Source: Massilicoli timonensis
Lineage (GTDB): Bacteria > Bacillota_I > Bacilli_A > Erysipelotrichales > Erysipelotrichaceae
Direction: 5' to 3'
Assembly: GCF_900199515.1 (NCBI RefSeq)
Contig: NZ_LT963434.1
Span: 174,057 to 206,056 of the forward strand
Length of the DNA stretch: 32,000 nucleotides
Every line of letters begins with the position of its first letter. The first letter of the stretch is position 1. Position numbers and translations under genes: made by a program. Shown here one piece after another: positions 933-18,426 of this stretch. Below the pieces are notes generated by a model. That model saw only the letters and a list, made by a program, of their open reading frames with translations. It was not told where the DNA came from and did no database searches.

Positions 933-2558
933 ATGAATTATAAAATCGTTGCTATAACCGATACACAGTATTATGAAGAAAACTTTTCCTTAAAGAAGCT
1001 GGCCGCAAAAGTTGCTTGTGCAAAAGCGCTTGATGATCAAACGCTGCATGAATTACTGGCAGATCCACTGCTTGCGTCAACCGCACAGATCGAACCGCTT
1101 GCGCAGATCATCGACCGTCTGAAGCTGGCAAAAAAACGACAGGAACACGTATTGGTCTGCGGTGATTATGATGCAGATGGGATCTGTGCGACGACGATCA
1201 TGGTCTATGCACTGCGCCGCTATGGCATCACCTGTGGCTATTATATTCCCAATCGTTTTCGAGAAGGGTATGGCTTATCGTGCAATACCGTGGAGCTGGC
1301 TTATGAAAAGGGCTATCAGCTGTTGATTACCGTCGATAACGGAGTAAAGGCATTTGCGGCATGTGAGCGGGCACAGGCGTTACAGTTAGATCTGATCTTG
1401 ACGGATCATCACCAATATGAGGAACTGCCGCCGCATCTTTTGTTTTTACATCCGGCGATCTTGCCGAAGCGTTTTGCTAATATGTGCGGGGCGGCGATGG
1501 CATTGCTCATTGCCAATGCACTGATCGGGGAACAGTATGATACGATGATCTGGGCCATGATCGCGACCATCGGCGATGTCATGCCGCTGGAGGCGGAAAA
1601 TCGGATGATCGTGCGCAAGGGGCTTTCTTATCTGCGACGCGGTTTCGCAGTTCCGATCCAAAAACTGGCGGCGCCTTTTGTGAAATGGGATGAAACCGCT
1701 GTGGCATTCCAGATCGTTCCCAAACTGAATGCGATCGGCAGAATGGCAGATGAAGCCAATGCGAACATGGCAGTGCGCTATCTGTTGTCCGGCAATATGG
1801 AAGAAATCGAAAAGTGTGCGCAGCAGATCATTGCGCTCAATGCCTACCGCAAGGTAAAAAGCGAGGAGATGTATCAGCGCTGCATGCAGCTAACGTTTCC
1901 ACAAACACAGTTTCAGATCTTATATGATCCAACCTTTCATGAGGGTTTATTAGGTATCGCGGCAGGACGTATTGCAAATGAGCTGCATGTTCCGACAATG
2001 GTATTGACAAAGAAAGACGATCATGTGAGCGGCAGTGTGCGCAGTGTCGGCAGTTTGGATCTGATGACATTTTTTGCGCCATGGAAAGATCGCTTCATCC
2101 GCTTTGGCGGACATCAAAAAGCCTGCGCGATCACGATAGACGCAGAACAGCTGCCGCAGCTGCGCGCGTATTGTGAACAGGAAATCGATCCAACGCTCTT
2201 ACAAGAGGAGCACGATGAAACGCTGATTTGCTTAGAGCCGGAGGAAATCACCTTGGAAGCAGCGCTGGACTTGATGCGTTTGGCGCCCTTTGGAGAAGGG
2301 TGGAAGAAACCGCTTTTTCTTGTGAAACTAGACGATCTGACGATGACGCGCTTAAAAGGCGGACACTTAAAATTCAACAAAGGAGATCTGGAATTGATCT
2401 ATTTTAACGCTCCGCAGTTAGATGAAGCTTTCTTTGATCAGGACGATCATGCGTTTGTCGTATCCGTTGCGATCAAGCATTATCGCGGCAAACAAAGTGT
2501 GCTGCTTCAAATACAGGATGTGATTTCCGTAAGCGATGGTACCAGTGTGCTCTTATAG
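933..2558 (+). CDS. recJ: Single-stranded-DNA-specific exonuclease RecJ (DHH/DHHA1 family)
   Basis: DHH motifs VCGDYDADGICAT, VDNG and LTDHH, plus DHHA1 RFGGHQKA. SD gaggt sits 6 nt before the ATG. The recJ-apt-relA order matches Bacillus. Confidence 0.85.
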   Translation: MNYKIVAITDTQYYEENFSLKKLAAKVACAKALDDQTLHELLADPLLASTAQIEPLAQIIDRLKLAKKRQEHVLVCGDYDADGICATTIMVYALRRYGITCGYYIPNRFREGYGLSCNTVELAYEKGYQLLITVDNGVKAFAACERAQALQLDLILTDHHQYEELPPHLLFLHPAILPKRFANMCGAAMALLIANALIGEQYDTMIWAMIATIGDVMPLEAENRMIVRKGLSYLRRGFAVPIQKLAAPFVKWDETAVAFQIVPKLNAIGRMADEANANMAVRYLLSGNMEEIEKCAQQIIALNAYRKVKSEEMYQRCMQLTFPQTQFQILYDPTFHEGLLGIAAGRIANELHVPTMVLTKKDDHVSGSVRSVGSLDLMTFFAPWKDRFIRFGGHQKACAITIDAEQLPQLRAYCEQEIDPTLLQEEHDETLICLEPEEITLEAALDLMRLAPFGEGWKKPLFLVKLDDLTMTRLKGGHLKFNKGDLELIYFNAPQLDEAFFDQDDHAFVVSVAIKHYRGKQSVLLQIQDVISVSDGTSVLL

Positions 2559-2632
2559 GTATTTGTTTCCGCAAGAAAGATCGATGCGGATGAAAATGCA
2601 CTGATTTATGTAATGCAAAAACACGGAATATT

Positions 2633-2641
2633 TGATATAAT
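2633..2641 (+). promoter_or_regulatory. Extended -10 promoter (TGaTATAAT) upstream of apt
   Basis: TG at 2633-2634 and TATAAT at 2636-2641. Confidence 0.45.
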
Positions 2642-2683
2642 GATACTATCTATAAAACAAGCGATAAACAGGGAGGCATGGTT

Positions 2684-3202
2684 ATGGATTACAAAAAATA
2701 TATTGCGGATATCGAAGGATTTCCAAAAGAAGGGATCTTGTTTCGAGATATTACGCCTTTGATGGCTGATGGCAAAGCGTTTCATACAGCATGTGATGAA
2801 ATGATCGCCTTTGCCAAAGAAGTAAAAGCAGATGTGATCGTCGGTCCAGAATCTAGAGGGTTTATTTTCGGATGTCCGGTTGCTTATCAGCTCGGCATCG
2901 GTTTTGTGCCGGTGCGCAAACCGGGGAAGCTGCCGCGCAAGACCGTCAGCGTTTCTTATGATCTGGAATATGGCAGCAATGAACTGCATGTCCATGCGGA
3001 CGGCATCACAAAAGGACAGAGAGTGCTGATCATTGACGATTTACTGGCAACCGGTGGAACGGTGAGGGCAACAATGGATATTGTCAAGCAGCTGGGCGGT
3101 GAAGTTGTCGGCTGTGCCTTTTTGATCGAATTGAAGGATCTGAACGGTCGTGCTGCGATCGGGGTACAAACACCGATCAAGACATTGATCTCATACGAGT
3201 AA
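2684..3202 (+). CDS. apt: Adenine phosphoribosyltransferase
   Basis: [14 protein letters not shown] and the PRPP-binding loop [14 protein letters not shown] prefer ATG 2684 (GGGAGG 7 nt upstream) over the ORF-track ATG 2678, which has only 1 nt of spacing. Confidence 0.9.
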
Positions 3203-3203
3203 C

Positions 3204-3224
3204 AAAGGGGCGTTCCCCCTTTTT
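3204..3224 (+). terminator. Short hairpin plus T-run between apt and relA (possible partial terminator)
   Basis: aaagggg-cgtt-cccccttttt immediately after the apt stop. Confidence 0.5.
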
Positions 3225-3246
3225 GAAATAGAAAGAGGGTGATGGT

Positions 3247-5448
3247 ATGGTAAGAAAGACAGCGGTCGGCTATCCGGAACTGATGGAGGAAGTCAGACAG
3301 TACATTCATAAGGAAGAAAATATCAAGCTGATCGAAGATGCTTATGCGTTTGCTCATGAAAAGCATGAAGGGCAATTTCGCAAAAGCGGCGAGCCTTATG
3401 TTGTACATGTGATCCAGGTCGGCTATATTTTAGCGCAGCTGCGCACCGGGCCGCAGACGATCGCAGCAGGACTGCTTCATGATGTGATCGAAGACTGCAG
3501 TGTCAGCGATGATGATTTTAAGCAGCGCTTCGGGGAAGAAGTGTATCGGCTGGTAGAAGCGGTTACCAAGATTGGCAATCTGAAATTCAAGGATGAAAAA
3601 GAATATCTTGCCAGCAATCACCGCAAGATCTTTATCGCGATGGCGCAGGATGTCCGCGTCATTCTCATTAAATTGTCCGACCGTCTTCATAATATGCGCA
3701 CGCTGCAATACATGAAGGAGGAAAAGCAGAAAAAGATCGCTTCGGAAACACTGGAGGTCTATGCACCGATCGCCCATCGTTTGGGTATCAGCGAAATCAA
3801 AAATGAACTGGAGGATCTTTGTTTCCAATATCTGAATCCGGAGAAATATTATGAAATTGCGCATTTGGTAGAAAAACGCAAAACCGAGCGGGATGAACAG
3901 GTGCACCAGATGATCGATGAAATATCGGCTTTACTGGATGAACACCATATCGCTTATCGGATATTCGGCAGAAGCAAGCATCTTTACAGCATCTATAAAA
4001 AGATGGTGACCAAGAAAAAACGCTTTGAGGAGATACTTGATCTTCTGGCGATCCGCATCATCACCAGCGATGAAACGGCATGCTATGAAATATTAGGCTA
4101 TATCCATGCGAAATATCGGCCGATCCCGGGTCGCTTCAAAGATTATATCGCAATGCCGAAGGTCAATATGTATCAGTCCTTGCATACGACGATCGTTGCG
4201 GAAGAAGGCAATATTTTCGAAGTGCAGATCCGTACGGAAAAGATGGATGAGATCGCCGAACAGGGGATCGCAGCGCACTGGCGCTATAAAGAAAACCGCA
4301 ATGGCGGAAAAGAAGTGCCGCAGAAGGAAATTGAGGAACAACTGCACTGGCTGCGTGATTTCTCGCTTATGAGCGATGAGGTCAGTGATGATGCAATGGA
4401 ATATATGAATCTGTTGCAAAAGGATATTTTTGAAGCCAATGTGTATGTCATGTCGCCTAAGGGCAGGGTGATCGCTTTGCCAAATGGAGCGACCCCGATC
4501 GATTTTGCCTATCGCATCCATACGGAAATCGGACATAAAATGATCGGGGCGACGGTAAACGGCGGCATCGTGCCGTTGAATACACCGTTAAAGACAGGTG
4601 ATGTTGTATCGATTCGCACCAGCAATCAATCCAACGGTCCAAGCGAAGACTGGCTTAAAATCGTCAAGTCCTCACATGCCCGCAATAAGATTCGTGCCTT
4701 TTTTGCCAAACAAGAGGTAGAACGGAAAAAAGAAGGAATCCGCAAAGGGGAAGAACTGCTGGGAGAGGAATTGAAGAAACGCGGCTTGGATGTTTCTTTC
4801 ATGGAAGAAAAGCGTATCAATGCAATTACCAATTCCATGAGCTTTGCCTCTTATGACGATATCATGTACGCCATCGGCACTAAGATCGTATCCGTTTCTT
4901 CGGTCATTGAACGATTGACGAAGCATAAACAGTTCAATCAGTTGGATAATCAGGAAATGATCGAAATGTTTAACCGGCAAGAAGGACGGAAAAAAACGAT
5001 CTCGCGTTCCGGTATCAGTGTGGCGGGAATCGGCAGCATGAAGATCACGCTGGCGGCGTGCTGCTCACCGGTGCCGGGTGATGAGATCATCGGCTATATT
5101 ACCAAGGGACAGGGCGTAAAAGTACACCGCAAAGACTGTCCAAACATTATAAATGAAACCAAGCGGTTAATTGAAGTGGAATGGGATGATGATCTTGAAT
5201 CACGTAATTATGAGGTGAAGCTGCTGATCAAGTCCAATGACCGCAATTATCTGCTTTCGGATATCGTAACCATTGTTTCACAGTGTAAAGCAGGCTTAAA
5301 TCATGTGGACAGTAAGGTCAATGAGGATGGTGTTACGGCAACGACCAAGATGACGGTGGTGGTAAACGATGCGCAGCATCTGCGCACGCTGATCGCGAAT
5401 CTCAGTAAGGTCAATTCGGTCAAAAGCGTGGAGCGAGTCGTTTTATAG
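3247..5448 (+). CDS. relA: Bifunctional (p)ppGpp synthetase/hydrolase Rel (long RSH)
   Basis: 733 aa. HD hydrolase motifs (HEGQFRKSGEPYVVH, LLHDVIED), synthetase motifs (GRSKHLYSIYKKM, DLLAIRII, YQSLHTT, FEVQIRTEKMDEIAEQGIAAHWRYK), and TGS and ACT-like C-terminal regions. Confidence 0.95.
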   Translation: MVRKTAVGYPELMEEVRQYIHKEENIKLIEDAYAFAHEKHEGQFRKSGEPYVVHVIQVGYILAQLRTGPQTIAAGLLHDVIEDCSVSDDDFKQRFGEEVYRLVEAVTKIGNLKFKDEKEYLASNHRKIFIAMAQDVRVILIKLSDRLHNMRTLQYMKEEKQKKIASETLEVYAPIAHRLGISEIKNELEDLCFQYLNPEKYYEIAHLVEKRKTERDEQVHQMIDEISALLDEHHIAYRIFGRSKHLYSIYKKMVTKKKRFEEILDLLAIRIITSDETACYEILGYIHAKYRPIPGRFKDYIAMPKVNMYQSLHTTIVAEEGNIFEVQIRTEKMDEIAEQGIAAHWRYKENRNGGKEVPQKEIEEQLHWLRDFSLMSDEVSDDAMEYMNLLQKDIFEANVYVMSPKGRVIALPNGATPIDFAYRIHTEIGHKMIGATVNGGIVPLNTPLKTGDVVSIRTSNQSNGPSEDWLKIVKSSHARNKIRAFFAKQEVERKKEGIRKGEELLGEELKKRGLDVSFMEEKRINAITNSMSFASYDDIMYAIGTKIVSVSSVIERLTKHKQFNQLDNQEMIEMFNRQEGRKKTISRSGISVAGIGSMKITLAACCSPVPGDEIIGYITKGQGVKVHRKDCPNIINETKRLIEVEWDDDLESRNYEVKLLIKSNDRNYLLSDIVTIVSQCKAGLNHVDSKVNEDGVTATTKMTVVVNDAQHLRTLIANLSKVNSVKSVERVVL

Positions 5449-5499
5449 GACGCCCCTTTGTGAAAACAAGAAAAACCATGCGATTTTCATGACAAATAC

Positions 5500-5528
5500 T
5501 TGCCAAGAACGCTGTTTTTGATTATACT
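5500..5528 (+). promoter_or_regulatory. Sigma-A-type promoter of the hisS-aspS leader
   Basis: TTGCCA (5500-5505), 17-nt spacer, TATACT (5523-5528). Confidence 0.6.
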
Positions 5529-5534
5529 GTACCT

Positions 5535-5742
5535 AGATTCGATGAAGAAGAGAAAGAACGGATGCATGGCACAGAGAGGGAAGGACGCTGAAAATTCCTG
5601 CATGCGAAGGACTGGGACACTTTGGAGAAGTATCTGCAAAACAGGTACCGTCGGCGGCGTTATCGCATGAAAGGGCATATCGTTTCGATATGAACTAAGG
5701 TGGCACCGCGTATCATACGTCCTTAGACAAGGACGTTTTTTT
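5535..5742 (+). promoter_or_regulatory. T-box riboswitch leader (tRNA-sensing transcription attenuator) of hisS-aspS
   Basis: GA/K-turn gatgaag (5541-5547), AGAGA (5573-5577), distal-loop gctgaaaa (5587-5594) and T-box sequence aactaaggtggcaccgcg (5693-5710). The terminator is acgtcctt/aaggacgt (5717-5724 / 5729-5736) plus a T-run to 5742, 21 nt before the hisS ATG. Confidence 0.9.
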
Positions 5743-5763
5743 ATACTAAAGGAGGAATGAAAC

Positions 5764-7065
5764 ATGAGTTATCAAATGCCAAGAGGCACACAGGATATTT
5801 TACCGAAGGATATTGCAAAATGGCATCGTTTGGAAGAGCTGATCCGGCAGTTTTGCTATGTGTATAACTATAACGAGATCCGCACGCCGATCTTTGAACA
5901 TACCGAGGTCTTTAAGCGCGGCAACGATTCCAGCGATATGGTAAACAAGGAAATGTATACATTTCAATTAACAAACAGCCGTACTTCTTTGACTTTGCGT
6001 CCGGAAGGGACAGCCGGTGTCGTACGCAGCTTTGTCGAGCATAAGATGTATGGCGATGCGGAGCTGCCGGCAAAGCTGTATTATCTGGGACCGCAGTTTC
6101 GTCATGAACGTCCGCAGAAAGGACGGCAGCGCATCTTTCATCAGTTCGGCGTCGAAGTCATCGGTGCGAAAAATCCATTGTTGGATGTGGAAGTGATCGC
6201 ACTGGGATGGTCCTTTGTGAATGCTTTGGGCTTAAAAGATATGAAGGTCTTATTAAATACACTGGGTGATGATGCTTCAAGAGATGCTTATCGCGCAGCC
6301 TTAAAGGCACATTTTGCCGATGCGATCGACGACATGTGCGCAGACTGCAAACGTCGCTATGAACAAAACCCGCTGCGCATCTTAGATTGTAAGATCGACG
6401 CTGAGAAAGATATCATGAAAACAGCGCCGCATATGAAAGACTATCTAAATGAGGAATCAAAAGCATATTTTGCGAAAGTATGCGAAGGATTGGAAGCCTT
6501 AGGCATTCCTTATGAAATCGATGATCGTTTGGTACGCGGCTTAGATTATTATACGCATACCGTCTTTGAGGTCGTATCGGTCAATCAGGAAATGGGCAGT
6601 CAGTCCACCGTATTTGCGGGCGGCCGTTATGACGGCTTGGTTTCCTATTTCGGCGGTCCGGAAGGCATGAGCGGTATTGGATGGGCAATGGGCTTAGAGC
6701 GGCTGATCCTCGCTTGTGAAGCGGAGGGGATCGTCTTATCAGAAGAAGAAGGACTGGATGCTTACGTGCTTTGCTTAGATGAATCGGCATCGGTTGCGGC
6801 GCTGCAGATCACGACGATGCTGCGGGCTGCCGGTTATCGCTGTGAACGCGATTATCTGGGACGTTCTTTCAAAGCACAGTTCAAAAGCGTAGAGCGCCGT
6901 CATGCGAAATATGCGATCTTGGTCGGTGAAAAAGAGGTGCAAAGCGGTGTGCTTACGATCAAGCGTACAGCGGATCGCATGCAGTTTGAGGGAGCGATCG
7001 ATGAGCTGGTAGAAGTCATGGATCGGTTGATGGAAGAAGAGGAAGGAGCACATCACCATGAATAG
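5764..7065 (+). CDS. hisS: Histidine--tRNA ligase
   Basis: Class II HisRS motifs (MPRGTQD, LRPEGTA, YYLGPQFRHERPQKGRQRIFHQFG, GGRYDGL). The protein ends ...GAHHHE. Confidence 0.95.
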   Translation: MSYQMPRGTQDILPKDIAKWHRLEELIRQFCYVYNYNEIRTPIFEHTEVFKRGNDSSDMVNKEMYTFQLTNSRTSLTLRPEGTAGVVRSFVEHKMYGDAELPAKLYYLGPQFRHERPQKGRQRIFHQFGVEVIGAKNPLLDVEVIALGWSFVNALGLKDMKVLLNTLGDDASRDAYRAALKAHFADAIDDMCADCKRRYEQNPLRILDCKIDAEKDIMKTAPHMKDYLNEESKAYFAKVCEGLEALGIPYEIDDRLVRGLDYYTHTVFEVVSVNQEMGSQSTVFAGGRYDGLVSYFGGPEGMSGIGWAMGLERLILACEAEGIVLSEEEGLDAYVLCLDESASVAALQITTMLRAAGYRCERDYLGRSFKAQFKSVERRHAKYAILVGEKEVQSGVLTIKRTADRMQFEGAIDELVEVMDRLMEEEEGAHHHE

Positions 7066-11644: not shown

Positions 11645-12475
11645 GTGAATGGAATTTTATTGATCAATAAAGAAAAGGGCATGACCAGCCATGATGTAGT
11701 CAATCGGCTGCGTAAGATCCTGCATATGAAAAAAATCGGACATACCGGCACACTGGATCCGCAGGCGAGCGGATTGCTGGTCGTGCTGCTTGGAACAGCA
11801 TGCAAGGCGCTTCCTTATTTAGAAGATGTCGATAAAGAATATATTGCGGAAATGGAACTGGGGCGCAAAACGATCAGTGATGATATTTGGGGAGAAGTAC
11901 AGGAAGTAAGAGAAGTAACGCCAATCGCAGATTTTCCTGCGCTGGTGCGTTCCATGATCGGTGTGCAGCAGCAAGTGCCGCCGTTGATTTCCAGCATCAA
12001 GGTAAACGGTAAAAAGCTCTATGAGTATGCACGGGCCAAGCAAAGCGTTACCGTTAAACCGCGCCAGGTGGAAATTTATGAAATGGAAGTATTAGAGGAG
12101 GCAAGCCTGCGGTTTCGCTGCAGGTGCAGCAGCGGTACGTATGTGCGGGCCATTTGCCGAGACATGGCTTTGCAAAGCGGTAATCTGGGTTGCATGAAAT
12201 CCTTGGTGCGCACTCAGGTTGGCCGTTTTAAGCTAAGCGATGCCGTAACGCTGGAACAAGTGGAAAAAGGCATGTTTCAGATCATCCCGCTGAAAGAAGC
12301 GCTGCGGCATTATCCGCAAGTCGCCCTTACGGATCCAAGTGATGTGCTGAATGGGAAACATCTGCGTTTGGATGTGCCTTACGACCAGTTCCTGTTTACG
12401 TATCAGGATGAACCGCTGGCGATTTACAGAAGGCACCATGACTGTGTGTTCGCCTGTGTGCGCGGGCTTTGGTAG
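11645..12475 (+). CDS. truB: tRNA pseudouridine(55) synthase TruB
   Basis: GILLINKEKGMTSHDVV and the catalytic motif GHTGTLDPQASGLLVV. GTG start with AGGTGA upstream. Confidence 0.9.
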   Translation: MNGILLINKEKGMTSHDVVNRLRKILHMKKIGHTGTLDPQASGLLVVLLGTACKALPYLEDVDKEYIAEMELGRKTISDDIWGEVQEVREVTPIADFPALVRSMIGVQQQVPPLISSIKVNGKKLYEYARAKQSVTVKPRQVEIYEMEVLEEASLRFRCRCSSGTYVRAICRDMALQSGNLGCMKSLVRTQVGRFKLSDAVTLEQVEKGMFQIIPLKEALRHYPQVALTDPSDVLNGKHLRLDVPYDQFLFTYQDEPLAIYRRHHDCVFACVRGLW

Positions 12476-12483
12476 GTGAGCAT

Positions 12484-13410
12484 ATGGAAATTATTACAGT
12501 GAAGATCCATGCAGGAGAAATTGTCATACCAGATGATCTATGTGCCTGTATCGGTTATTTTGACGGGATGCACATCGGGCATCAGTCGCTTTTTCATCAG
12601 GTATTTCAGGTTTGTAAGCAAAGTGCTTTACGATCCGCGCTCATTACCTTCGATCCGGATCCTTGGACGATTACGAAGCAGCAGCAGGAATTAAAGCATC
12701 TGATGACGATGAAACAAAGAATTGCCTATGGAGAAGCATTTGGGTTTGCTTATTGGATCATTTTGCACTTTGATGAAGCGATGGCTTCCTTATCGGTTTC
12801 TGCCTTCCATGCACTGTTAAAAAGCTTACGGGTAAAGGTGCTGGTAAGCGGCTTTGATTTTCACTATGCGCATTTTGGTGCGGGGAATTGTGATACTTTG
12901 CAAGAGCAGCGTGATTTCGATGTCATCATCTGCAAGGAGGTCAAGCTGCTGGATGAAAAGATTTCTTCCACCCGTATCGAGCAGGCGCTGGATCATGGCG
13001 ATGTAGAACTGGCAGCAGCGCTTTTGGGAAGGCCGTTTTGTGTAGAGGGCATGGTTGTTCATGGAAGAGGATTAGGCAGGACCATCGGTTTTCCGACGGC
13101 TAATTTACGATGTGAAAAAGAGCAGTACTTGCCTGCTTCCGGTGTTTATGCCGGTTATGCGGAAGTAGGTGGTGAACGCTACCGCGCTATTTTGAATATC
13201 GGTCATAACCCGACCTTTAACTTAAAAGAACAGTTATCTTTGGAGGTCCACTTATTAGGCTTTAGCGGTGATCTGTACGATCGCCATCTAACTGTTTCGT
13301 TTTATGATTATCTGCGTGATGAAAAAAAGTTTGCATCGCAAGACGCTCTGATCGAGCAGTTAAAGCAGGATCAGATGCGGGCGATCGCATTACTGCATAT
13401 GCCAGAGTAG
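12484..13410 (+). CDS. ribF: Bifunctional riboflavin kinase / FMN adenylyltransferase
   Basis: GYFDGMHIGHQSL (FAD synthetase) and GRGLGRTIGFPTANL...LEVHLLGFSGDLY (riboflavin kinase). I prefer ATG 12484 over the ORF-track TTG 12469. Confidence 0.9.
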   Translation: MEIITVKIHAGEIVIPDDLCACIGYFDGMHIGHQSLFHQVFQVCKQSALRSALITFDPDPWTITKQQQELKHLMTMKQRIAYGEAFGFAYWIILHFDEAMASLSVSAFHALLKSLRVKVLVSGFDFHYAHFGAGNCDTLQEQRDFDVIICKEVKLLDEKISSTRIEQALDHGDVELAAALLGRPFCVEGMVVHGRGLGRTIGFPTANLRCEKEQYLPASGVYAGYAEVGGERYRAILNIGHNPTFNLKEQLSLEVHLLGFSGDLYDRHLTVSFYDYLRDEKKFASQDALIEQLKQDQMRAIALLHMPE

Positions 13411-13422
13411 GAGGGAAAGAAA

Positions 13423-14796
13423 GTGCAGCTACCGGTTTTTAGAACGATTGATGAAACTTTGTGTCTGCTGGATAAAAAAAATACCCAGCTGGAAAAGATC
13501 CGCCGCCAAGTCAAACGCTTCTGGATGAACTTCTTTATCGATAAACAGGAGGCGATCGTCGATGTGACTTCCCGCGTAAAAGGGAAGGAAAGCCTGCGTG
13601 AGAAAATCATCCGCAATCGTCTTTATATTGAAAAAGACAGTCCGCAGCAGATCTTAGCGGATCTAAGCGATCTGATCGGGTTCGCGATCGAATGCCGTTT
13701 TATCGATGAAGAAAACGAAATCCTGCAAGAACTGCGCAGTCGTTTTACGATTCCTTCTTTAACGGATGATGGTTATTCACGCTGTGAGGAAGATGCCCAT
13801 TTATTTCTGGAATTGAACAGTCCGCAGCCACAGATGCAGAAAAACGGGTTTTCGATCTATCGCATCGACGGTTATTATGTGAATCATGAGGAAAAAGTGC
13901 GTTTTGAATTACAGATCAAGTCTTTGGTACACATGTTTTGGGGAGAGATCGAGCATAAGCTGGTATATAAGAATTCCAATTTCTATGTCTATGATAATTT
14001 CATGAAAGAGATCTTGGCTTCGATCATGGCCAATTTAACGATCTTGGACAAACAGCTGCGGATCGTTTACAAACAGATGGATCAGATGTCGCGTGATGGA
14101 CATGGCATGTCTGAACATGATTTTGAACAAGTGATCATCAAGGCGATCAACGACTTATTCTTAATGAAGATGAGCGCCTCGATCGGCTTTACGCTGAATA
14201 TCAAAAATACGAGTTCGATCCTAGGCCATTACCTGTTCATCAAGGATTTTCGCAATGAGAGCAAGAACAGCGATCAGGTGTCCCGCTTATTTGCGACGTT
14301 CAAGAAGTTAAACAGCGTCGATCTCGACTTTGAAAACGAAATTCGTATCACCGGTAATTTTTCTTCATCCGATGTATTTATTGATACGTTGGGAAATTAT
14401 CTGCTTTCCATCATCAATTTTGATTATGACTGGTATGTGTTCTTCAAAATGCTGTTTGTGATCGAACCGGGCGACGATCTGGAGGATTTTTCTCTGTTTT
14501 TGAAGGTCATCAAGAACTATCTGGTCGATTCCTATTGGCTGGACACCAGCTTTGCCCGCTTGCCGCTTGCGGAAAGTGAACAGATCCATCATGATCTATG
14601 GAAGATCCTAGCGGACGCTTTGGTGGAGATCGGCAGTATTCGCATGATCCATGACGATAAGATGATCATGATCAATCAGGCCTTTGTGGAATTTGTGAAT
14701 GAACTGGAAGAACGCGTCATCTCCTACGATGATTTCCGCCATTATAAAGAAGCTTACTATGAGGAATGGCTGAAACGCATTCATCGCTTCTTTTGA
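13423..14796 (+). CDS. RelA/SpoT-fold (small alarmone synthetase-like) nucleotidyltransferase domain fused to an uncharacterised ~270-aa C-terminal domain
   Basis: Ordered SAS-type motifs: SRVKGKESLREKIIRN, DLIGFAIECRFIDE, NGFSIYRIDGYY, RFELQIKSLVHMFWGEIEHKLVYKN. GTG start 7 nt after AGGAGGG, 12 nt after the ribF stop. I recognise nothing in the C-terminal ~270 aa. Confidence 0.7.
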   Translation: MQLPVFRTIDETLCLLDKKNTQLEKIRRQVKRFWMNFFIDKQEAIVDVTSRVKGKESLREKIIRNRLYIEKDSPQQILADLSDLIGFAIECRFIDEENEILQELRSRFTIPSLTDDGYSRCEEDAHLFLELNSPQPQMQKNGFSIYRIDGYYVNHEEKVRFELQIKSLVHMFWGEIEHKLVYKNSNFYVYDNFMKEILASIMANLTILDKQLRIVYKQMDQMSRDGHGMSEHDFEQVIIKAINDLFLMKMSASIGFTLNIKNTSSILGHYLFIKDFRNESKNSDQVSRLFATFKKLNSVDLDFENEIRITGNFSSSDVFIDTLGNYLLSIINFDYDWYVFFKMLFVIEPGDDLEDFSLFLKVIKNYLVDSYWLDTSFARLPLAESEQIHHDLWKILADALVEIGSIRMIHDDKMIMINQAFVEFVNELEERVISYDDFRHYKEAYYEEWLKRIHRFF

Positions 14797-14801
14797 TCCA
14801 G

Positions 14802-14830
14802 GCATGTTTTGTTTCCTCCTTGCATACAGT
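14802..14830 (+). promoter_or_regulatory. Candidate sigma-E-type (mother-cell) promoter for the spoIIIAH-like gene
   Basis: GCATGTT (14802-14808), 14-nt spacer, CATACAGT (14823-14830), compared with the remembered B. subtilis sigma-E consensus ZHATAXX-14-CATACAHT. That is 13 of 15 positions. Confidence 0.35.
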
Positions 14831-14852
14831 GAAGTAGCAAGGAGGATTTTTT
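14814..14852 (+). terminator. Intrinsic terminator of the truB-ribF-RSH operon; its 3' arm contains the SD of the next gene
   Basis: Perfect 10-bp stem tcctccttgc (14814-14823) / gcaaggagga (14837-14846), 13-nt loop, six T (14847-14852) abutting ATG 14853. Confidence 0.85.
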
Positions 14853-15335
14853 ATGAACAGACAAGCTTTGGCATTCTTAACGCTGTTTTCGCTCATCCTG
14901 ATGTTGTCGGTCTACTATGTTACCATACCTGCCGATGATATGAGCGTATCCACAAAGGAACATAACAGCGAGCCACTTACTACATCAAAGCAAGAAACCA
15001 GTGAAACATTGCAGGAAAACGCCGATGAAAAGAAGGATCAGCAGCTGAGCGAAGAATCGGCAACGCTTTCCGATGAAGCCGCCAGCGAGGAAGACAAGAA
15101 AGAAGCGCTGGAAACGATGGATGCGATCAAGGATACGAAAAAGACCGAAACAAAGATCAAGGAAGCATTGCAGAAAAGCGGTTTTGAAAGCGTTGTGGAA
15201 ATCGAGGATGAAGTGTGCAGCGTTTCGATCTTTCACAGTGAGGACAATAAAGAAAATGCGAAAATCGTATTAAAGCAGGTATATGATATCGTAGGCCAGC
15301 AATATTTTGTGGAAGTTACTTTCAAAAGCGAATAA
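14853..15335 (+). CDS. spoIIIAH: SpoIIIAH-like sporulation protein (N-terminal TM anchor, acidic linker, YscJ/FliF-like C-terminal domain)
   Basis: TM segment ending LSVYYV, a long Glu/Ser/Lys-rich linker, and a C-terminal pattern (EALETMD...KIKEALQKSGFESVVEIEDE...VEVTF) resembling B. subtilis SpoIIIAH as I remember it. It lies just upstream of the Asp23-family gene and nusB. Confidence 0.6.
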   Translation: MNRQALAFLTLFSLILMLSVYYVTIPADDMSVSTKEHNSEPLTTSKQETSETLQENADEKKDQQLSEESATLSDEAASEEDKKEALETMDAIKDTKKTETKIKEALQKSGFESVVEIEDEVCSVSIFHSEDNKENAKIVLKQVYDIVGQQYFVEVTFKSE

Positions 15336-15348: not shown

Positions 15349-15368
15349 GGTGGCAGAAGGTGATAAGC

Positions 15369-15695
15369 ATGGCACAAGAATATTTATTAGCCAAAAATAA
15401 AAATCAGTTGGGACAGATCGCACTCAGCAAATCGGTGTTCGAAACGATCGCGAAGATCGCGGTGGAAGAGGAAGAACAGCTTGCTTTGGCGGATGGGGCG
15501 TTTCGATCTGCCCTCACATGCAAGATTACCGATGATCAGTTGATCATCACGCTTGATGTGAAAGTAAAATATCTTGCCAAGGTCGAAGAGATTTGCGCGC
15601 GTTTACAGGCGAAGATTTATGACAGTATTTCACATATGAGCGATTACAGTCCCGATGTGATCGATATTCGCATTGTCGGATTTCTGTTTGAATAA
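15369..15695 (+). CDS. Asp23/Gls24 family envelope stress protein (YqhY-like)
   Basis: Size about 108 aa. N-terminal pattern GQIALSKSVFETIAKIAVEE is typical of the Asp23 family, and the gene sits upstream of nusB as yqhY does in Bacillus. ATG 15369 is preferred (AAGGTGA 5 nt upstream). Confidence 0.65.
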   Translation: MAQEYLLAKNKNQLGQIALSKSVFETIAKIAVEEEEQLALADGAFRSALTCKITDDQLIITLDVKVKYLAKVEEICARLQAKIYDSISHMSDYSPDVIDIRIVGFLFE

Positions 15696-15750: not shown

Positions 15751-17064
15751 ATGAATGTAAATGAACGATTATTCGCTTTTATCAAAAACAGTCCCAGTAT
15801 GTTTCACGCGGTTGATACGATGAAAAAAGAGCTGGCGGCACATGGTTTTATCCTGCTGGATGAAACAAAGCCATGGAAGCTGGAGGCGGGAAAGGACTAT
15901 ATGGTTACCCGCAATCACAGCAGCATCATCGCTTTTCGCATGCCGCAGACAGACGATTATCATTACCAGATCGTCGCCAGCCACAGCGATTCTCCCTGCT
16001 TTTTAGTGAAACCGCATGCAGAGCTTGCCTGCGAAGGTTTTATCAAGCTGAATGTAGAAGTGTACGGCGGTACTTTATTGAGCACCTGGTTTGATCGTCC
16101 GCTTTCTTTAGCCGGCCGTTTGCTGGTAAAGGAAGACGGGAAGATCGTATCCAAATATGTCAATGTCGATCAGGATCTGCTGATCATTCCCAATTTAGCC
16201 ATTCATATGAATCGTGAGGCCAATCAAGGAGTCCGCATCGCCGCGCAGAATGATATTTTGCCTTTGTACGCGATGGGTGAACACACTGATCTGCTGGCAT
16301 GTGTCGCACAGGCAGCCTGTGTAGAGAAAGATGCGATCGTAACGCATGAGCTGTATGTATATCCACGTGCACAGGGAACGCTGCTTGGTGATGGCGGCGC
16401 ATGGATCGGCTGTCCGAAACTGGATAATCTGCAAAGTGCCTTTTCCTCTTTACAGGCGCTCTTGCAGGCTCATCATCCGGGTCACGTCAGCATGCTTTGC
16501 TGCTTCGATAATGAGGAGATCGGCAGCGGCAGCAGACAGGGAGCAGACGGCTGCTTTCTTGCCGATGTGATGGTGCGCATCGATGCGGCTTATGAGAAAA
16601 CACCCGCCCAGCAGGCGGCGATACGGGCACGATCTTTCTTTGTGTCCTGTGACAATGCGCATGCGTTCCATCCGAATTACCCGCAAAAAGCAGATCCCAA
16701 CCATCATGTTTATCTAAACAAAGGGGTCGTGATCAAGCACAGTGCCCGTAAAGCTTATACTTCCGACGCTTTCAGTGCGGCGCTGTTTCGCACGCTCTGT
16801 GAGCAGGCAGACGTGCCGGTACAGGATTTTGTCAATCACAATGAAATCATCGGCGGAGGAACGCTGGGGGCGATCTCCAGCTCACATGTGTCGATTCCCA
16901 GCATCGACATCGGCTTGGCACAGCTGGCAATGCATTCCGCCTATGAAATCGGCGGCGCCAAGGACACTGCTTATATGATCGCTGCTTTAAGCGCTTTTTT
17001 CAGTCATGACATCATCTTATCAAAGGATGGAGAAGGAGCGATACATCCATGCCCAAATCACTAG
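15751..17064 (+). CDS. M18 family aminopeptidase (aspartyl aminopeptidase-like)
   Basis: SPSMFHAV, IVASHSDSPCF, LDNLQS, CFDNEEIGSGSRQGA and LAQLAMHSAYE. ATG 15751 is preferred (GAGGAGG 8 nt upstream) over the ORF-track TTG 15727. Confidence 0.8.
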   Translation: MNVNERLFAFIKNSPSMFHAVDTMKKELAAHGFILLDETKPWKLEAGKDYMVTRNHSSIIAFRMPQTDDYHYQIVASHSDSPCFLVKPHAELACEGFIKLNVEVYGGTLLSTWFDRPLSLAGRLLVKEDGKIVSKYVNVDQDLLIIPNLAIHMNREANQGVRIAAQNDILPLYAMGEHTDLLACVAQAACVEKDAIVTHELYVYPRAQGTLLGDGGAWIGCPKLDNLQSAFSSLQALLQAHHPGHVSMLCCFDNEEIGSGSRQGADGCFLADVMVRIDAAYEKTPAQQAAIRARSFFVSCDNAHAFHPNYPQKADPNHHVYLNKGVVIKHSARKAYTSDAFSAALFRTLCEQADVPVQDFVNHNEIIGGGTLGAISSSHVSIPSIDIGLAQLAMHSAYEIGGAKDTAYMIAALSAFFSHDIILSKDGEGAIHPCPNH

Positions 17065-17948
17065 CGGGCTGTCTGGCCGTAGGGATCAGTTCCCGGGCAT
17101 TGTTTGATCTCTCTTATGAGAATGCGATCTTTGAAAAGGCGGGACTAGAGGCATATACAGACTATCAGCGAGAACATGAGCATGATGTTTTGAAGCCCGG
17201 CACCGGTTTTCCGCTCGTGCGTTCGTTATTAACACTCAATGACCTGGAACCGAAACGCAAACGGGTGGAAGTGGTGATCTTGTCGCATAACAGTGTGGAA
17301 ACAGGATTACGTATCTTTCATTCGATCGCTCACTATCAATTAGATATTTCGCGAGCGGCATTTTGCGGCGATCATGATCTGTTTCCTTATCTGCGTGCCT
17401 TTTCGATCGATCTGTTTTTATCGGCAGAGGAAAGCGATGTGCAAGAGGCGATCCGTCATCACTATGCAGCGGGTTTGATCTATCCTTCTGTAAGCAACGA
17501 GTATGAAGCACTGCCGATCCGCATTGCGTTTGACGGCGACGCGGTCTTATTTTCCGATGAAGCTGAACAGATCTACCAGAAAGAAGGACTGGACGCCTTT
17601 GTCCGCCATGAAGTAGAAAACGCTGCCAAACCGCTTCCACAGGGACCTTTTGCGCATTTCTTGCAGGCGATTGCGCAGCTGCAAGAGGAATTCAAGGGGC
17701 GAGAAGCGCCGATCATCACTGCGCTTGTAACCGCCCGCAATGCACCGGCGCATGAACGGGTCGTATCGACTTTTCGGGCATGGCATGTTACGGTCGATCA
17801 GTCCTTTTTCTTGGGCGGACTAAGCAAACAGCCAATCTTGGCGGCATTTCGTCCGCATATTTTCTTTGATGATCAGCAGGTTCATGGGGAAGCGGCCAGT
17901 GCATTTGTGCCAAGTGCCAGAGTTGCGTACCCAAAGCGGGAATCATGA
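17049..17948 (+). CDS. HAD-superfamily 5'-nucleotidase-like protein (bacterial '5-nucleotidase' family)
   Basis: N-terminal AVGISSRALFDL...YQREHE pattern, HAD motif I IAFDGDAVLF, motif II-like VTARNAP and motif IV IFFDDQ. It overlaps the upstream aminopeptidase gene by 16 nt. Confidence 0.6.
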   Translation: MPKSLAGCLAVGISSRALFDLSYENAIFEKAGLEAYTDYQREHEHDVLKPGTGFPLVRSLLTLNDLEPKRKRVEVVILSHNSVETGLRIFHSIAHYQLDISRAAFCGDHDLFPYLRAFSIDLFLSAEESDVQEAIRHHYAAGLIYPSVSNEYEALPIRIAFDGDAVLFSDEAEQIYQKEGLDAFVRHEVENAAKPLPQGPFAHFLQAIAQLQEEFKGREAPIITALVTARNAPAHERVVSTFRAWHVTVDQSFFLGGLSKQPILAAFRPHIFFDDQQVHGEAASAFVPSARVAYPKRES

Positions 17949-17999
17949 TCAAATTTGTGGTGTTTTTACAACGAATAGTAGCCACATAATTGTGATTTA

Positions 18000-18008
18000 T
18001 GATAAAAT
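18000..18008 (+). promoter_or_regulatory. Extended -10 promoter (TGaTAAAAT) upstream of nusB
   Basis: TG at 18000-18001 and TAAAAT at 18003-18008. Confidence 0.4.
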
Positions 18009-18033
18009 AGGGAAGATGAATGGAGGAATCATT

Positions 18034-18426
18034 ATGCAGGCAAAAAAAGGGATGAACAGACATCAGCTGCGCGAGGTGGGGATGACTTGTCTGTATCAGT
18101 CATTTCTTTTGAACGGCAACATTCGCCAGATCGTATTTGAAAACAGTGAAAGCAATGAGATCGATCCGTTTTTATATACGATCACCATTGATGCAATGAA
18201 ATATAAAGACATCTACATACAAAAGATCAATGCCGTGATCAACAAAGACTGGTCGTTTGATCGTCTGGGCTATGTCGAACAGGCGATCTTGTTAATGGCG
18301 TGCTGTGAACTGGATCTGGAAACGGCGCAAAAAGCAATCGTGATTGATGAAGCGATCACGCTGGCCAAGAAATATTGCGATGATGATGCTTACAAGCTGA
18401 TCAACGGTGTATTGGATCGTCTATGA
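18034..18426 (+). CDS. nusB: Transcription antitermination factor NusB
   Basis: About 130 aa. RHQLREVGMTCLYQ, AILLMACCELD and AITLAKKYCDDDAYKLINGVLD. ATG 18034 has GGAGG 7 nt upstream, so the ORF-track start 17866 is an upstream extension. Confidence 0.85.
   Translation: MQAKKGMNRHQLREVGMTCLYQSFLLNGNIRQIVFENSESNEIDPFLYTITIDAMKYKDIYIQKINAVINKDWSFDRLGYVEQAILLMACCELDLETAQKAIVIDEAITLAKKYCDDDAYKLINGVLDRL

Follow-up and report, generated by a model that had tools for sequence, protein, structure and literature searches.

A RelC/cloRel-family RelA-SpoT homologue with a divergent acceptor loop, encoded behind truB-ribF in Massilicoli timonensis

The open reading frame (ORF) at 13423..14796 (+) of a 32,000-nt stretch of the Massilicoli timonensis contig NZ_LT963434.1 (this whole stretch is called the window below) encodes a protein which, judging from its sequence, is the Erysipelotrichaceae orthologue in the cloRel/RelC subfamily of RelA-SpoT homologues (RSHs). 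The best explanation of the data as a whole, to which we give slightly better than an even chance, is that the protein would be enzymatically active and non-toxic, a pyrophosphokinase that binds its acceptor in a non-canonical way and has a regulatory helical domain, and would be encoded by a housekeeping gene. The gene is vertically inherited in Erysipelotrichales, where it is fixed after truB-ribF. An earlier note on the same DNA had described the product as the second, divergent protein of the RSH synthetase fold in the window, a description with which both the Pfam and the fold matches agree.

The RelC/cloRel family and its catalytic module

A BLASTP comparison of the window protein with a 455-residue C. 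difficile protein (P0423, 422 member sequences, found by a search seeded with a Romboutsia member) gave 33% identity over residues 1–457 (239 bits, E 1e-78). P0423 was identified as C. difficile RelC because its Q137, within the sequence QPNKQKNGF, sits exactly where the RelC paper puts Q137. RelC is the name given to C. difficile CDR20291_1607, described as a 'divergent SAS' (small alarmone synthetase) whose C-terminal region of 250 residues has no known function; it was reported to keep the ATP motif, to lack the G-loop Tyr (Q137), to carry a ten-residue insert and to have homologues confined to Firmicutes (Poudel, bioRxiv 10.1101/2021.08.02.454818). The window protein shares with RelC/cloRel the SAS domain followed by a C-terminal region of ~230–250 residues with no known domain (455 vs 457 residues in total), the ATP motif, the QPxxQKNG loop, Gln at the position of the G-loop Tyr (Q137 vs Q139), the insert and the restriction to Firmicutes. 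The two differ in the GxR arginine, kept in C. difficile and C. tetani and lost in the clade of the window protein, and in genomic context: the C. difficile gene precedes molybdenum-cofactor genes, whereas the window gene follows truB-ribF, and the context in Clostridium is variable. Many Clostridium homologues also differ in length, with 505–540 residues and an extra C-terminal tail.

The name cloRel was given to a SAS subgroup of Firmicutes by Atkinson et al. in 2011 (PMC3153485), who found exactly three RSHs in C. tetani E88, namely cloRel, Rel and RelP, and listed cloRel for C. difficile and C. perfringens as well (PMC3153485). The C. tetani homologue found here (Pfam RelA_SpoT 70.7 bits; its cluster also contains the E88 protein AAO35055.1) is cloRel by elimination, since it is neither a long Rel nor RelP-sized. 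The RelC family is, therefore, very probably the cloRel subgroup, an equation that rests on the exclusion of Rel and RelP in C. tetani E88 and on the citation in the RelC paper, and not on the original subfamily hidden Markov models (HMMs). In the literature searched, cloRel was named only in the 2011 paper and RelC/CDR20291_1607 only in the 2021 preprint; other C. difficile literature counts RSH and RelQ only.

A word-indexed search returned 989 relatives, and an exhaustive search returned 551 clusters (50% identity, E ≤ 1e-3), 111 of them with E ≤ 1e-30; among the best 150 of the 551 clusters, most proteins have ~450 residues and align end to end. Relatives were found in 297 species representatives by a genome scan. 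The branch most like the window protein (40–64% identity) is that of Erysipelotrichales (Copranaerobaculum, Longicatena, Amedibacillus, Merdibacter, Dielma, Breznakia), and a branch at 33–38% identity includes Clostridium (C. tetani, C. argentinense, C. fallax and others), Sarcina, Vallitalea, Oceanirhabdus, Oscillospiraceae and Tissierellaceae. The source annotations of the relatives read 'RelA/spoT family protein', 'GTP pyrophosphokinase' or '(p)ppGpp synthetase'.

The HMM search proposed in the earlier note matched RelA_SpoT well above the curated threshold (50.2 bits vs 27), and the four SAS/RelQ motifs reported there are located at residues 50–65, 83–96, 141–152 and 160–184. The membership residues RxKxxxSxxxKxxR, DxxG, ExQ and EH are all present. 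A HMMER search against PDB sequences indicated RelP/RelQ proteins as the closest solved structures (3l9d at 7.7e-8, followed by 2be3, 6fgk and 5dec), and Foldseek matched the AlphaFold model to the same RelQ/RelP structures with E ~5e-7, a target template modelling (TM) score of 0.6–0.7 and ~215 aligned columns. The full-length model, made with 37 sequences, has a predicted local distance difference test (pLDDT) score of 79.8 and a predicted TM (pTM) score of 0.50. Residues 1 to ~225 are thus predicted to adopt the RelP/RelQ small-alarmone-synthetase fold. The helix formed by residues 192–224 was assigned to this fold because the HMMER alignment with RelP (3l9d) reaches residue 213, with the L-D motif in common, and because L205 and D209 are kept in 94–97% of the family. 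The earlier note had begun the C-terminal part at ~190 and given it ~270 residues; that this part has no known domain still stands, and its start was placed too early, the corrected limits being 226–457 (~230 residues).

RelP/RelQ proteins, the nearest in sequence and fold, have identical ligands for the ATP phosphates, Mg2+ and ribose, and both the N-terminal helix and the L-D-containing alpha5 helix are shared with them; the protein under study differs from them by the hairpin insert, the additional helical domain of ~230 residues and a G-loop Tyr that is not conserved. The long Rel of the same window, whose presence upstream with a full set of domains was confirmed, likewise has a RelA_SpoT synthetase domain, and its xMYQSLH / NGYQSxH register can be aligned with NGF. 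In contrast to the long Rel, the studied protein has no HD, TGS, AH/RIS or ACT domain and no hydrolase domain. The NCBIfam scan gave only a sub-threshold match to the YjbM equivalog NF053588 (36.5 bits vs a cut-off of 320).

Conservation was mapped on 109 sequences, i.e., the window protein and 108 divergent representatives with identity down to ~25–30%. Thirteen residues are invariant in 109/109 (R51, K53, K61, D83, G86, E97, P136, N141, E162, Q164, H178, Y182, K183), and S57, E60, R64, C91, Q135, Q139, I165, K166, W173 and N184 are 94–99% conserved. The published contacts of S. aureus RelP can be transferred to the window protein as follows: Arg78, which stacks on adenine, corresponds to R51; Lys80, Ser84, Lys88 and Arg91, which bind the ATP phosphates, to K53, S57, K61 and R64; the Mg2+ ligands Asp107 and Glu174 to D83 and E162; His190, which contacts ribose, to H178; and Arg112, the second adenine clamp, to A88 (PMC5794853). 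By this correspondence, all the RelP ligands of the ATP phosphates, ribose and Mg2+ are retained, including the catalytic Asp and Glu singled out in the earlier note, both invariant in the map.

The donor site deviates at position 88 (nt 13684–13686). Arg occupies this position in 73 of the 109 sequences, including those of C. difficile (GLRIECRF) and C. tetani (GIRIECRF), and is replaced by A, T, I, V, S or K across the Erysipelotrichales branch (GFAIECRF in the window protein), which may point to a clade-specific remodelling of the donor site. The change from GLR to GFA had been attributed to contacts with the acceptor nucleotide; the change is real, but the position corresponds to the donor-adenine clamp (Arg112) and the loss is specific to the clade of the window protein. 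The change from QIRT to QIKS, also suggested to affect the acceptor, turned out to be a conservative substitution only. E90 and R92, which lie in the same strand as position 88, are retained in the Erysipelotrichales branch.

The reading of the acceptor (G-loop) region as non-canonical is borne out by the map: the loop carries a family-specific motif, QPxxQ[KR]NG...IY[RK], in place of the motif with the stacking Tyr. Q135, P136, Q139 and N141 are 97–100% conserved, Y146 is Tyr in 97/109 sequences and position 147 is R or K in every representative. The G-loop Tyr stacks on guanine in B. subtilis RelQ (Tyr116) and S. aureus RelP (Tyr151) (PMC5794853; bioRxiv 10.1101/2021.08.02.454818). In gapless HMMER and MAFFT alignments, its place is taken by Gln139, as in the published RelC alignment. 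An alternative register aligns N141-G142-F143 with N-G-Y of B. subtilis YwaC; residue 143 then precedes the strand partner of the catalytic Glu by six residues (predicted strands 144–154 and 157–167), and this predicted hairpin geometry would match that inferred for long Rel and RelQ from sequence. Residue 143 varies across the 109 sequences (F 48, L 13, Y 12, K 9, H 8, N 5), and a conserved stacking Tyr is absent whichever register holds. The conservation of the replacement loop throughout the family argues for a functional, different substrate site and not for decay.

The C-terminal domain is predicted to be all-helical. In the AlphaFold 2 models, pLDDT is ~85–95 for residues 300–457 and ~50–65 for residues 184–300, so that confidence in the model is high over the last ~140 residues. 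The domain is acidic throughout the family (the median net charge is -13, and -5 for the N-terminal domain), and its conservation in the wider family is weak, except for W337 and F340-F341. The earlier note had found no motif that could be placed in this part, and the structure prediction and fold search that it proposed agree: no match was found by comparing the domain with Pfam or its profile with PDB sequences, and Foldseek with a dedicated C-terminal model revealed neither a PDB match (best E 0.59) nor a match among the predicted viral folds of BFVD (best E 0.14). Short matches in the representative search that might have been stand-alone C-terminal-domain proteins look like truncated gene calls and were rejected.

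Several other proteins related to the family were noted. A second tier consists of RelA_SpoT proteins of 510–553 residues (GIRLVCLL...QPExQKN; P0227, P0232–P0270) that match only residues ~8–370 of the query and possibly form a sister family that differs at its C-terminal end; second-tier proteins occur in genomes of the Bacillus cereus group (P0273 and P0274 from Bacillus paranthracis) and of Paenibacillus. A 743-residue Oscillospiraceae variant (P0264) has an N-terminal extension of ~240 residues without a Pfam match. At the C. tetani locus (L070, 5953–7560), E88 AAO35055.1 is annotated with 535 residues from an upstream TTG, and the proteins of other strains have 519 residues and start at a Met aligned with the family N-terminus; the start of the E88 protein is probably over-extended.

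Fixed position after truB-ribF in Erysipelotrichales

In Erysipelotrichales, ribF lies directly 5' of the homologue in 46/46 loci with enough upstream sequence, and truB precedes ribF wherever the locus reaches far enough. The SpoIIIAH-like gene usually comes next, followed by asp23 and nusB where the sequence extends; in seven loci, there is no SpoIIIAH-like gene and the homologue is followed directly by asp23. ribF and the homologue are separated by an RsmF-like rRNA methyltransferase gene in Solobacterium, an uncultured Erysipelotrichaceae metagenome-assembled genome (MAG) and a Bacillota MAG, and so the homologue stays among RNA-modification and translation genes in the lineages with the RsmF/RsmB-type insertion. 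These RsmF/RsmB-type 5-methylcytosine (m5C) methyltransferase genes are located at 4685–5995 in the Solobacterium locus (L064), where infC follows asp23, and at 4642–5982 and 2089–3400 in loci L079 and L059, respectively.

In Clostridia, clustering of the flanking ORFs of 34 loci revealed no conserved neighbour of the 452–539-residue homologues and no antitoxin-like partner; the only recurring neighbours were MatE, SDF and ABC transporters, in a few close relatives. In the survey of neighbours suggested in the earlier note, antitoxin-like genes versus truB-ribF, truB-ribF is fixed in Erysipelotrichales and no antitoxin-like gene is conserved in Clostridia. A 2'-5' RNA ligase and a GNAT protein, considered as partners, are neighbours in C. 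butyricum and are not conserved elsewhere. In Peptostreptococcaceae, relC is directly upstream of molybdenum-cofactor genes. A MobA-like gene lies 16 nt 3' of relC in C. difficile (L086, 96–5948), followed by MoCF_biosynth, moaA, moaC and MOSC genes, and moaA follows relC in Peptacetobacter (L087, 6001–8496). MoaA and MobA use GTP.

The sequence of the window confirms that the gene starts 12 nt past the ribF stop, with a Shine-Dalgarno sequence of its own (GGAGGG at 13410–13415; ribF ends at 13410 and the GTG is at 13423). The same ORF bounds are found in independent gene calls on four metagenome contigs with an identical protein, and 36 homologues share the start column of the ORF in the alignment. 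Three promoter-like sites were found in the stretch from truB to relC vs 8.8 expected by chance. With the synteny in 46/46 loci, this upholds the view of a long-resident gene, probably co-transcribed with truB-ribF.

The operon terminator suggested in the earlier note corresponds to a hairpin with a U-run after the gene, compatible with the end of an operon. A simple terminator scan missed the hairpin (14814–14852) because its loop has 13 nt. Its 3' arm contains the Shine-Dalgarno sequence of the SpoIIIAH-like gene (ATG 14853); the hairpin resembles an intrinsic terminator and could also sequester the ribosome-binding site of that gene. The arrangement of a hairpin (CCTCCTTGC, loop, GCAAGGAGG) and a T-run, followed by the ATG of the SpoIIIAH-like gene, recurs just past the stop of the homologue in loci L001, L002, L004, L008, L009, L013, L019, L020, L032, L033, L041 and L048. 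It is absent from loci without the SpoIIIAH-like gene.

The GATC-rich composition described for the whole window, the gene included, was confirmed as well: 465 sites were counted vs 186 ± 12 expected from dinucleotide-preserving shuffles, a 2.5-fold enrichment spread over the whole window. Codon or dipeptide bias, or Dam-type methylation biology, are possible sources of this enrichment.

Proposed function and alternative explanations

The protein would act as a Mg2+-dependent pyrophosphokinase, with the beta,gamma-pyrophosphate of ATP as the donated group and the 3'-OH of a free purine nucleotide as its acceptor. The base of the acceptor would be read by the conserved Gln/Asn residues instead of the canonical stacking Tyr, and the protein would probably differ from RelP/RelQ in the acceptor that it prefers and, with it, in the alarmone produced. 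The C-terminal helical domain could serve as a regulatory or oligomerisation module, and the gene would be expressed constitutively with the housekeeping operon, its product being neither a toxin nor a defence effector. In C. tetani, C. difficile and C. perfringens, cloRel occurs alongside Rel and a SAS of the RelP/RelQ type, which makes a non-redundant role probable.

Several points weigh against this proposal. The expression of RelC in E. coli, the only reported attempt, failed (bioRxiv 10.1101/2021.08.02.454818), which could reflect toxicity or insolubility, and a demonstrated activity of any family member was not found in the literature searched. The equivalent of the Tyr may be Gln139 or the variable residue 143, and any model of acceptor binding would be of low confidence; ATP binding may be weaker in the clade of the window protein, where the second adenine-clamping Arg (A88) is missing. 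The role proposed for the C-terminal domain is purely conjectural, the pTM of the model being 0.50 and residues 184–300 being of low confidence, and the co-transcription with truB-ribF, deduced from spacing and synteny, is only probable.

Some of the same observations would suit a non-catalytic RSH-fold protein that synthesises nothing: ATP or an alarmone would be bound, and the helical C-terminal domain would let the protein work as a sensor or scaffold. The family lacks, or does not conserve, the Tyr that has been called critical for every (p)ppGpp synthetase, one adenine-stacking Arg is lost in the clade of the window protein, and no activity was found reported for the family in the literature searched. 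However, D83, E162, Q164, K166 and H178 remain invariant, or 97% conserved, in representatives with identity as low as ~25–30%, which is hard to explain in a pure binder, and the conserved replacement loop (Q135, P136, Q139, N141) is a signature of a functional substrate site; we consider the non-catalytic explanation unlikely.

Less likely still is a fused toxin-antitoxin or anti-phage toxSAS protein of the CapRel type, an analogy drawn in the earlier note, in which the SYNTH domain would pyrophosphorylate the 3'-CCA of tRNA or overwhelm the cell with (pp)pApp, and the C-terminal domain would inhibit it until triggered. CapRel(SJ46), FaRel2 and PhRel2 do have the RSH synthetase fold, and CapRel also combines the catalytic domain with a C-terminal extension in a single polypeptide; the G-loop is non-canonical, the failed E. 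coli expression of C. difficile RelC is compatible with toxicity, and CapRel (E 4e-4, TM score 0.26–0.36) and FaRel2 are among the weak Foldseek matches. These matches (E 4e-4 to 8e-4, TM score 0.26–0.41) are nevertheless far inferior to those of RelQ/RelP, and CapRel 7ztb superposes poorly (root-mean-square deviation 12–14 Å). No PADLOC defence model matched at E up to 10, phmmer matched no toxSAS chain even at the same limit, and the C-terminal domain is similar to nothing, CapRel included. The surface of the protein is acidic, whereas the tRNA-targeting toxSAS enzymes have a basic groove for CCA (PMC11245113); the acidic charge of both domains argues, weakly, against tRNA binding. Among 50,697 phage records, there was no full-length copy, only distant relatives of the SYNTH domain alone, and in the plasmid collection full-length copies were found only on 0.7–0.9 Mb non-mobilizable C. 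butyricum replicons and in a 2.6 Mb Acetoanaerobium record; an association with mobile elements was rejected on this core-type distribution. Defence genes are typically patchy in distribution, and the gene studied is instead a fixed core gene of a housekeeping operon at all informative Erysipelotrichales loci, with no partner gene. The CapRel analogy is not sustained. The chance is slighter again, and close to negligible, that the gene arrived recently as cargo at a synteny breakpoint, where truB-ribF meets the spoIIIAH-yqhY-nusB block. It does occupy the slot of rpsO in Bacillus and adjoins an orphan SpoIIIAH-like gene, and the Clostridium homologues are in unrelated, variable contexts; but the order truB-ribF-gene-(spoIIIAH)-asp23-nusB is kept across Longicatena, Amedibacillus, Merdibacter, Dielma, Breznakia and Copranaerobaculum and, with the rsmF-like gene inserted, in Solobacterium and the Bacillota MAG, the GATC composition is the same as in the rest of the window and no mobile-element genes flank the gene. 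Recent acquisition is already contradicted by the synteny survey.

A wider proposal starts from the pyrophosphokinase explanation. RelC/cloRel proteins might be widespread Firmicutes housekeeping RSH enzymes that make a nucleotide other than (pp)pGpp, e.g., an adenosine-based or unusual 3'-pyrophosphorylated product, with the QPxxQxN loop selecting the acceptor and a novel all-helical sensor domain controlling the activity, and with the Erysipelotrichaceae enzyme wired into the truB-ribF (rsmF) operon; this we regard as speculative and rather improbable. The architecture had been left unplaced in the earlier note, which no longer applies to the family: it was catalogued in 2011 (cloRel) and described in 2021 (RelC), including the missing Tyr and the unknown C-terminal region, and only that region is still without a known domain. 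New here are the order-wide fixation after truB-ribF, the conservation map of the family, the finding that one clade has lost the second adenine clamp, the fold searches in which the C-terminal domain had no match and the arguments against a role in defence or as a toxin-antitoxin. The window adds one orthologue and no new kind of system, and the interest is higher for the family: cloRel/RelC is the only Firmicutes RSH subgroup in these organisms without a known activity, the conservation map supplies concrete residues for mutation, and gut Erysipelotrichaceae offer an alternative to C. difficile for studying a RelC-type protein.

Features and gene neighbourhood of the window

Table 1. Coordinates of the gene, its predicted domains and motifs, and neighbouring features (window numbering)
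Feature	Position	Strand	Details
Complete ORF, RelC/cloRel-family RSH protein	13423..14796	+	457 amino acids plus stop, GTG start
Shine-Dalgarno sequence GGAGGG	13410..13415	+	7 nt 5' of GTG; overlaps last base of ribF stop
Predicted SAS-fold catalytic module, residues 1–225	13423..14097	+	N-terminal helix 4–37, beta-sheet core, alpha5-like helix 192–224; AlphaFold 2, Foldseek, HMMER
Pfam RelA_SpoT (PF04607) match, residues 50–185	13570..13977	+	50.2 bits vs gathering score 27, E 3.5e-13
ATP-binding motif R51-x-K53-xxx-S57-xx-E60-K61-xx-R64	13573..13614	+	94–100% conserved, n=109
D83-LIG86-FA88-IEC91-RF	13669..13701	+	D83 corresponds to Mg2+ ligand; position 88 is Ala
Family-specific insert, ~residues 118–130	13774..13812	+	Predicted small beta-hairpin of ~12 residues before acceptor loop; MAFFT, AlphaFold 2 strands 119–121 and 124–129
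Acceptor loop Q135-P136-Q-M-Q139-K-N141-G142-F143-S-I145-Y146-R147-I-D149-G150	13825..13872	+	Replaces canonical P-x-x-G-Y-R-S-x-H
Catalytic strand and helix E162-L-Q164-I-K166...W173...E177-H178...Y182-K183-N184	13906..13974	+	K166, W173 and N184 97–99% conserved
Acidic, predicted all-helical C-terminal domain, residues 226–457	14098..14793	+	AlphaFold 2 models; net charge -16
truB-ribF, upstream operon partners	11645..13410	+	truB 11645–12475, ribF 12469–13410; Pfam
Terminator-like hairpin	14814..14852	+	TCCTCCTTGC, 13-nt loop, GCAAGGAGGA, T6; RNA fold -26.7 kcal/mol, z -3.98
SpoIIIAH-like gene	14853–15335		ATG at 14853; Pfam 32.2 bits, barely over cut-off 30.6
Asp23/YqhY-like gene	15360–15695		Pfam
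Canonical long Rel	3247–5448		HD, RelA_SpoT, TGS, AH/RIS and ACT domains (Pfam)

The gene order in the window is secF-recJ-apt-rel-hisS-aspS ... truB-ribF-relC-spoIIIAH-yqhY-nusB-xseA-ispA-dxs-rrmJ-recN-spoIVB-spo0A-dinB-spoIIM-xerD, and the window as a whole represents a core region of the chromosome of a spore-forming Firmicute. A search of the whole window with Rfam revealed no family at gathering score, including the gap at 5449–5763 upstream of hisS-aspS, where many Firmicutes have a T-box leader.

The sporulation genes spo0A, spoIVB and spoIIM are present in the window, and the SpoIIIAH-like gene is missing from several related loci. It holds its Bacillus position relative to yqhY-nusB, but truB-ribF-relC replace spoIIIAA-AG upstream. 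The longest ORF of nusB (17866–18426, TTG at 17866) overlaps the end of a 5'-nucleotidase gene (17049–17948) by ~80 nt; the true start of nusB is probably further downstream, since the Pfam NusB match begins only at residue 73 of this ORF.

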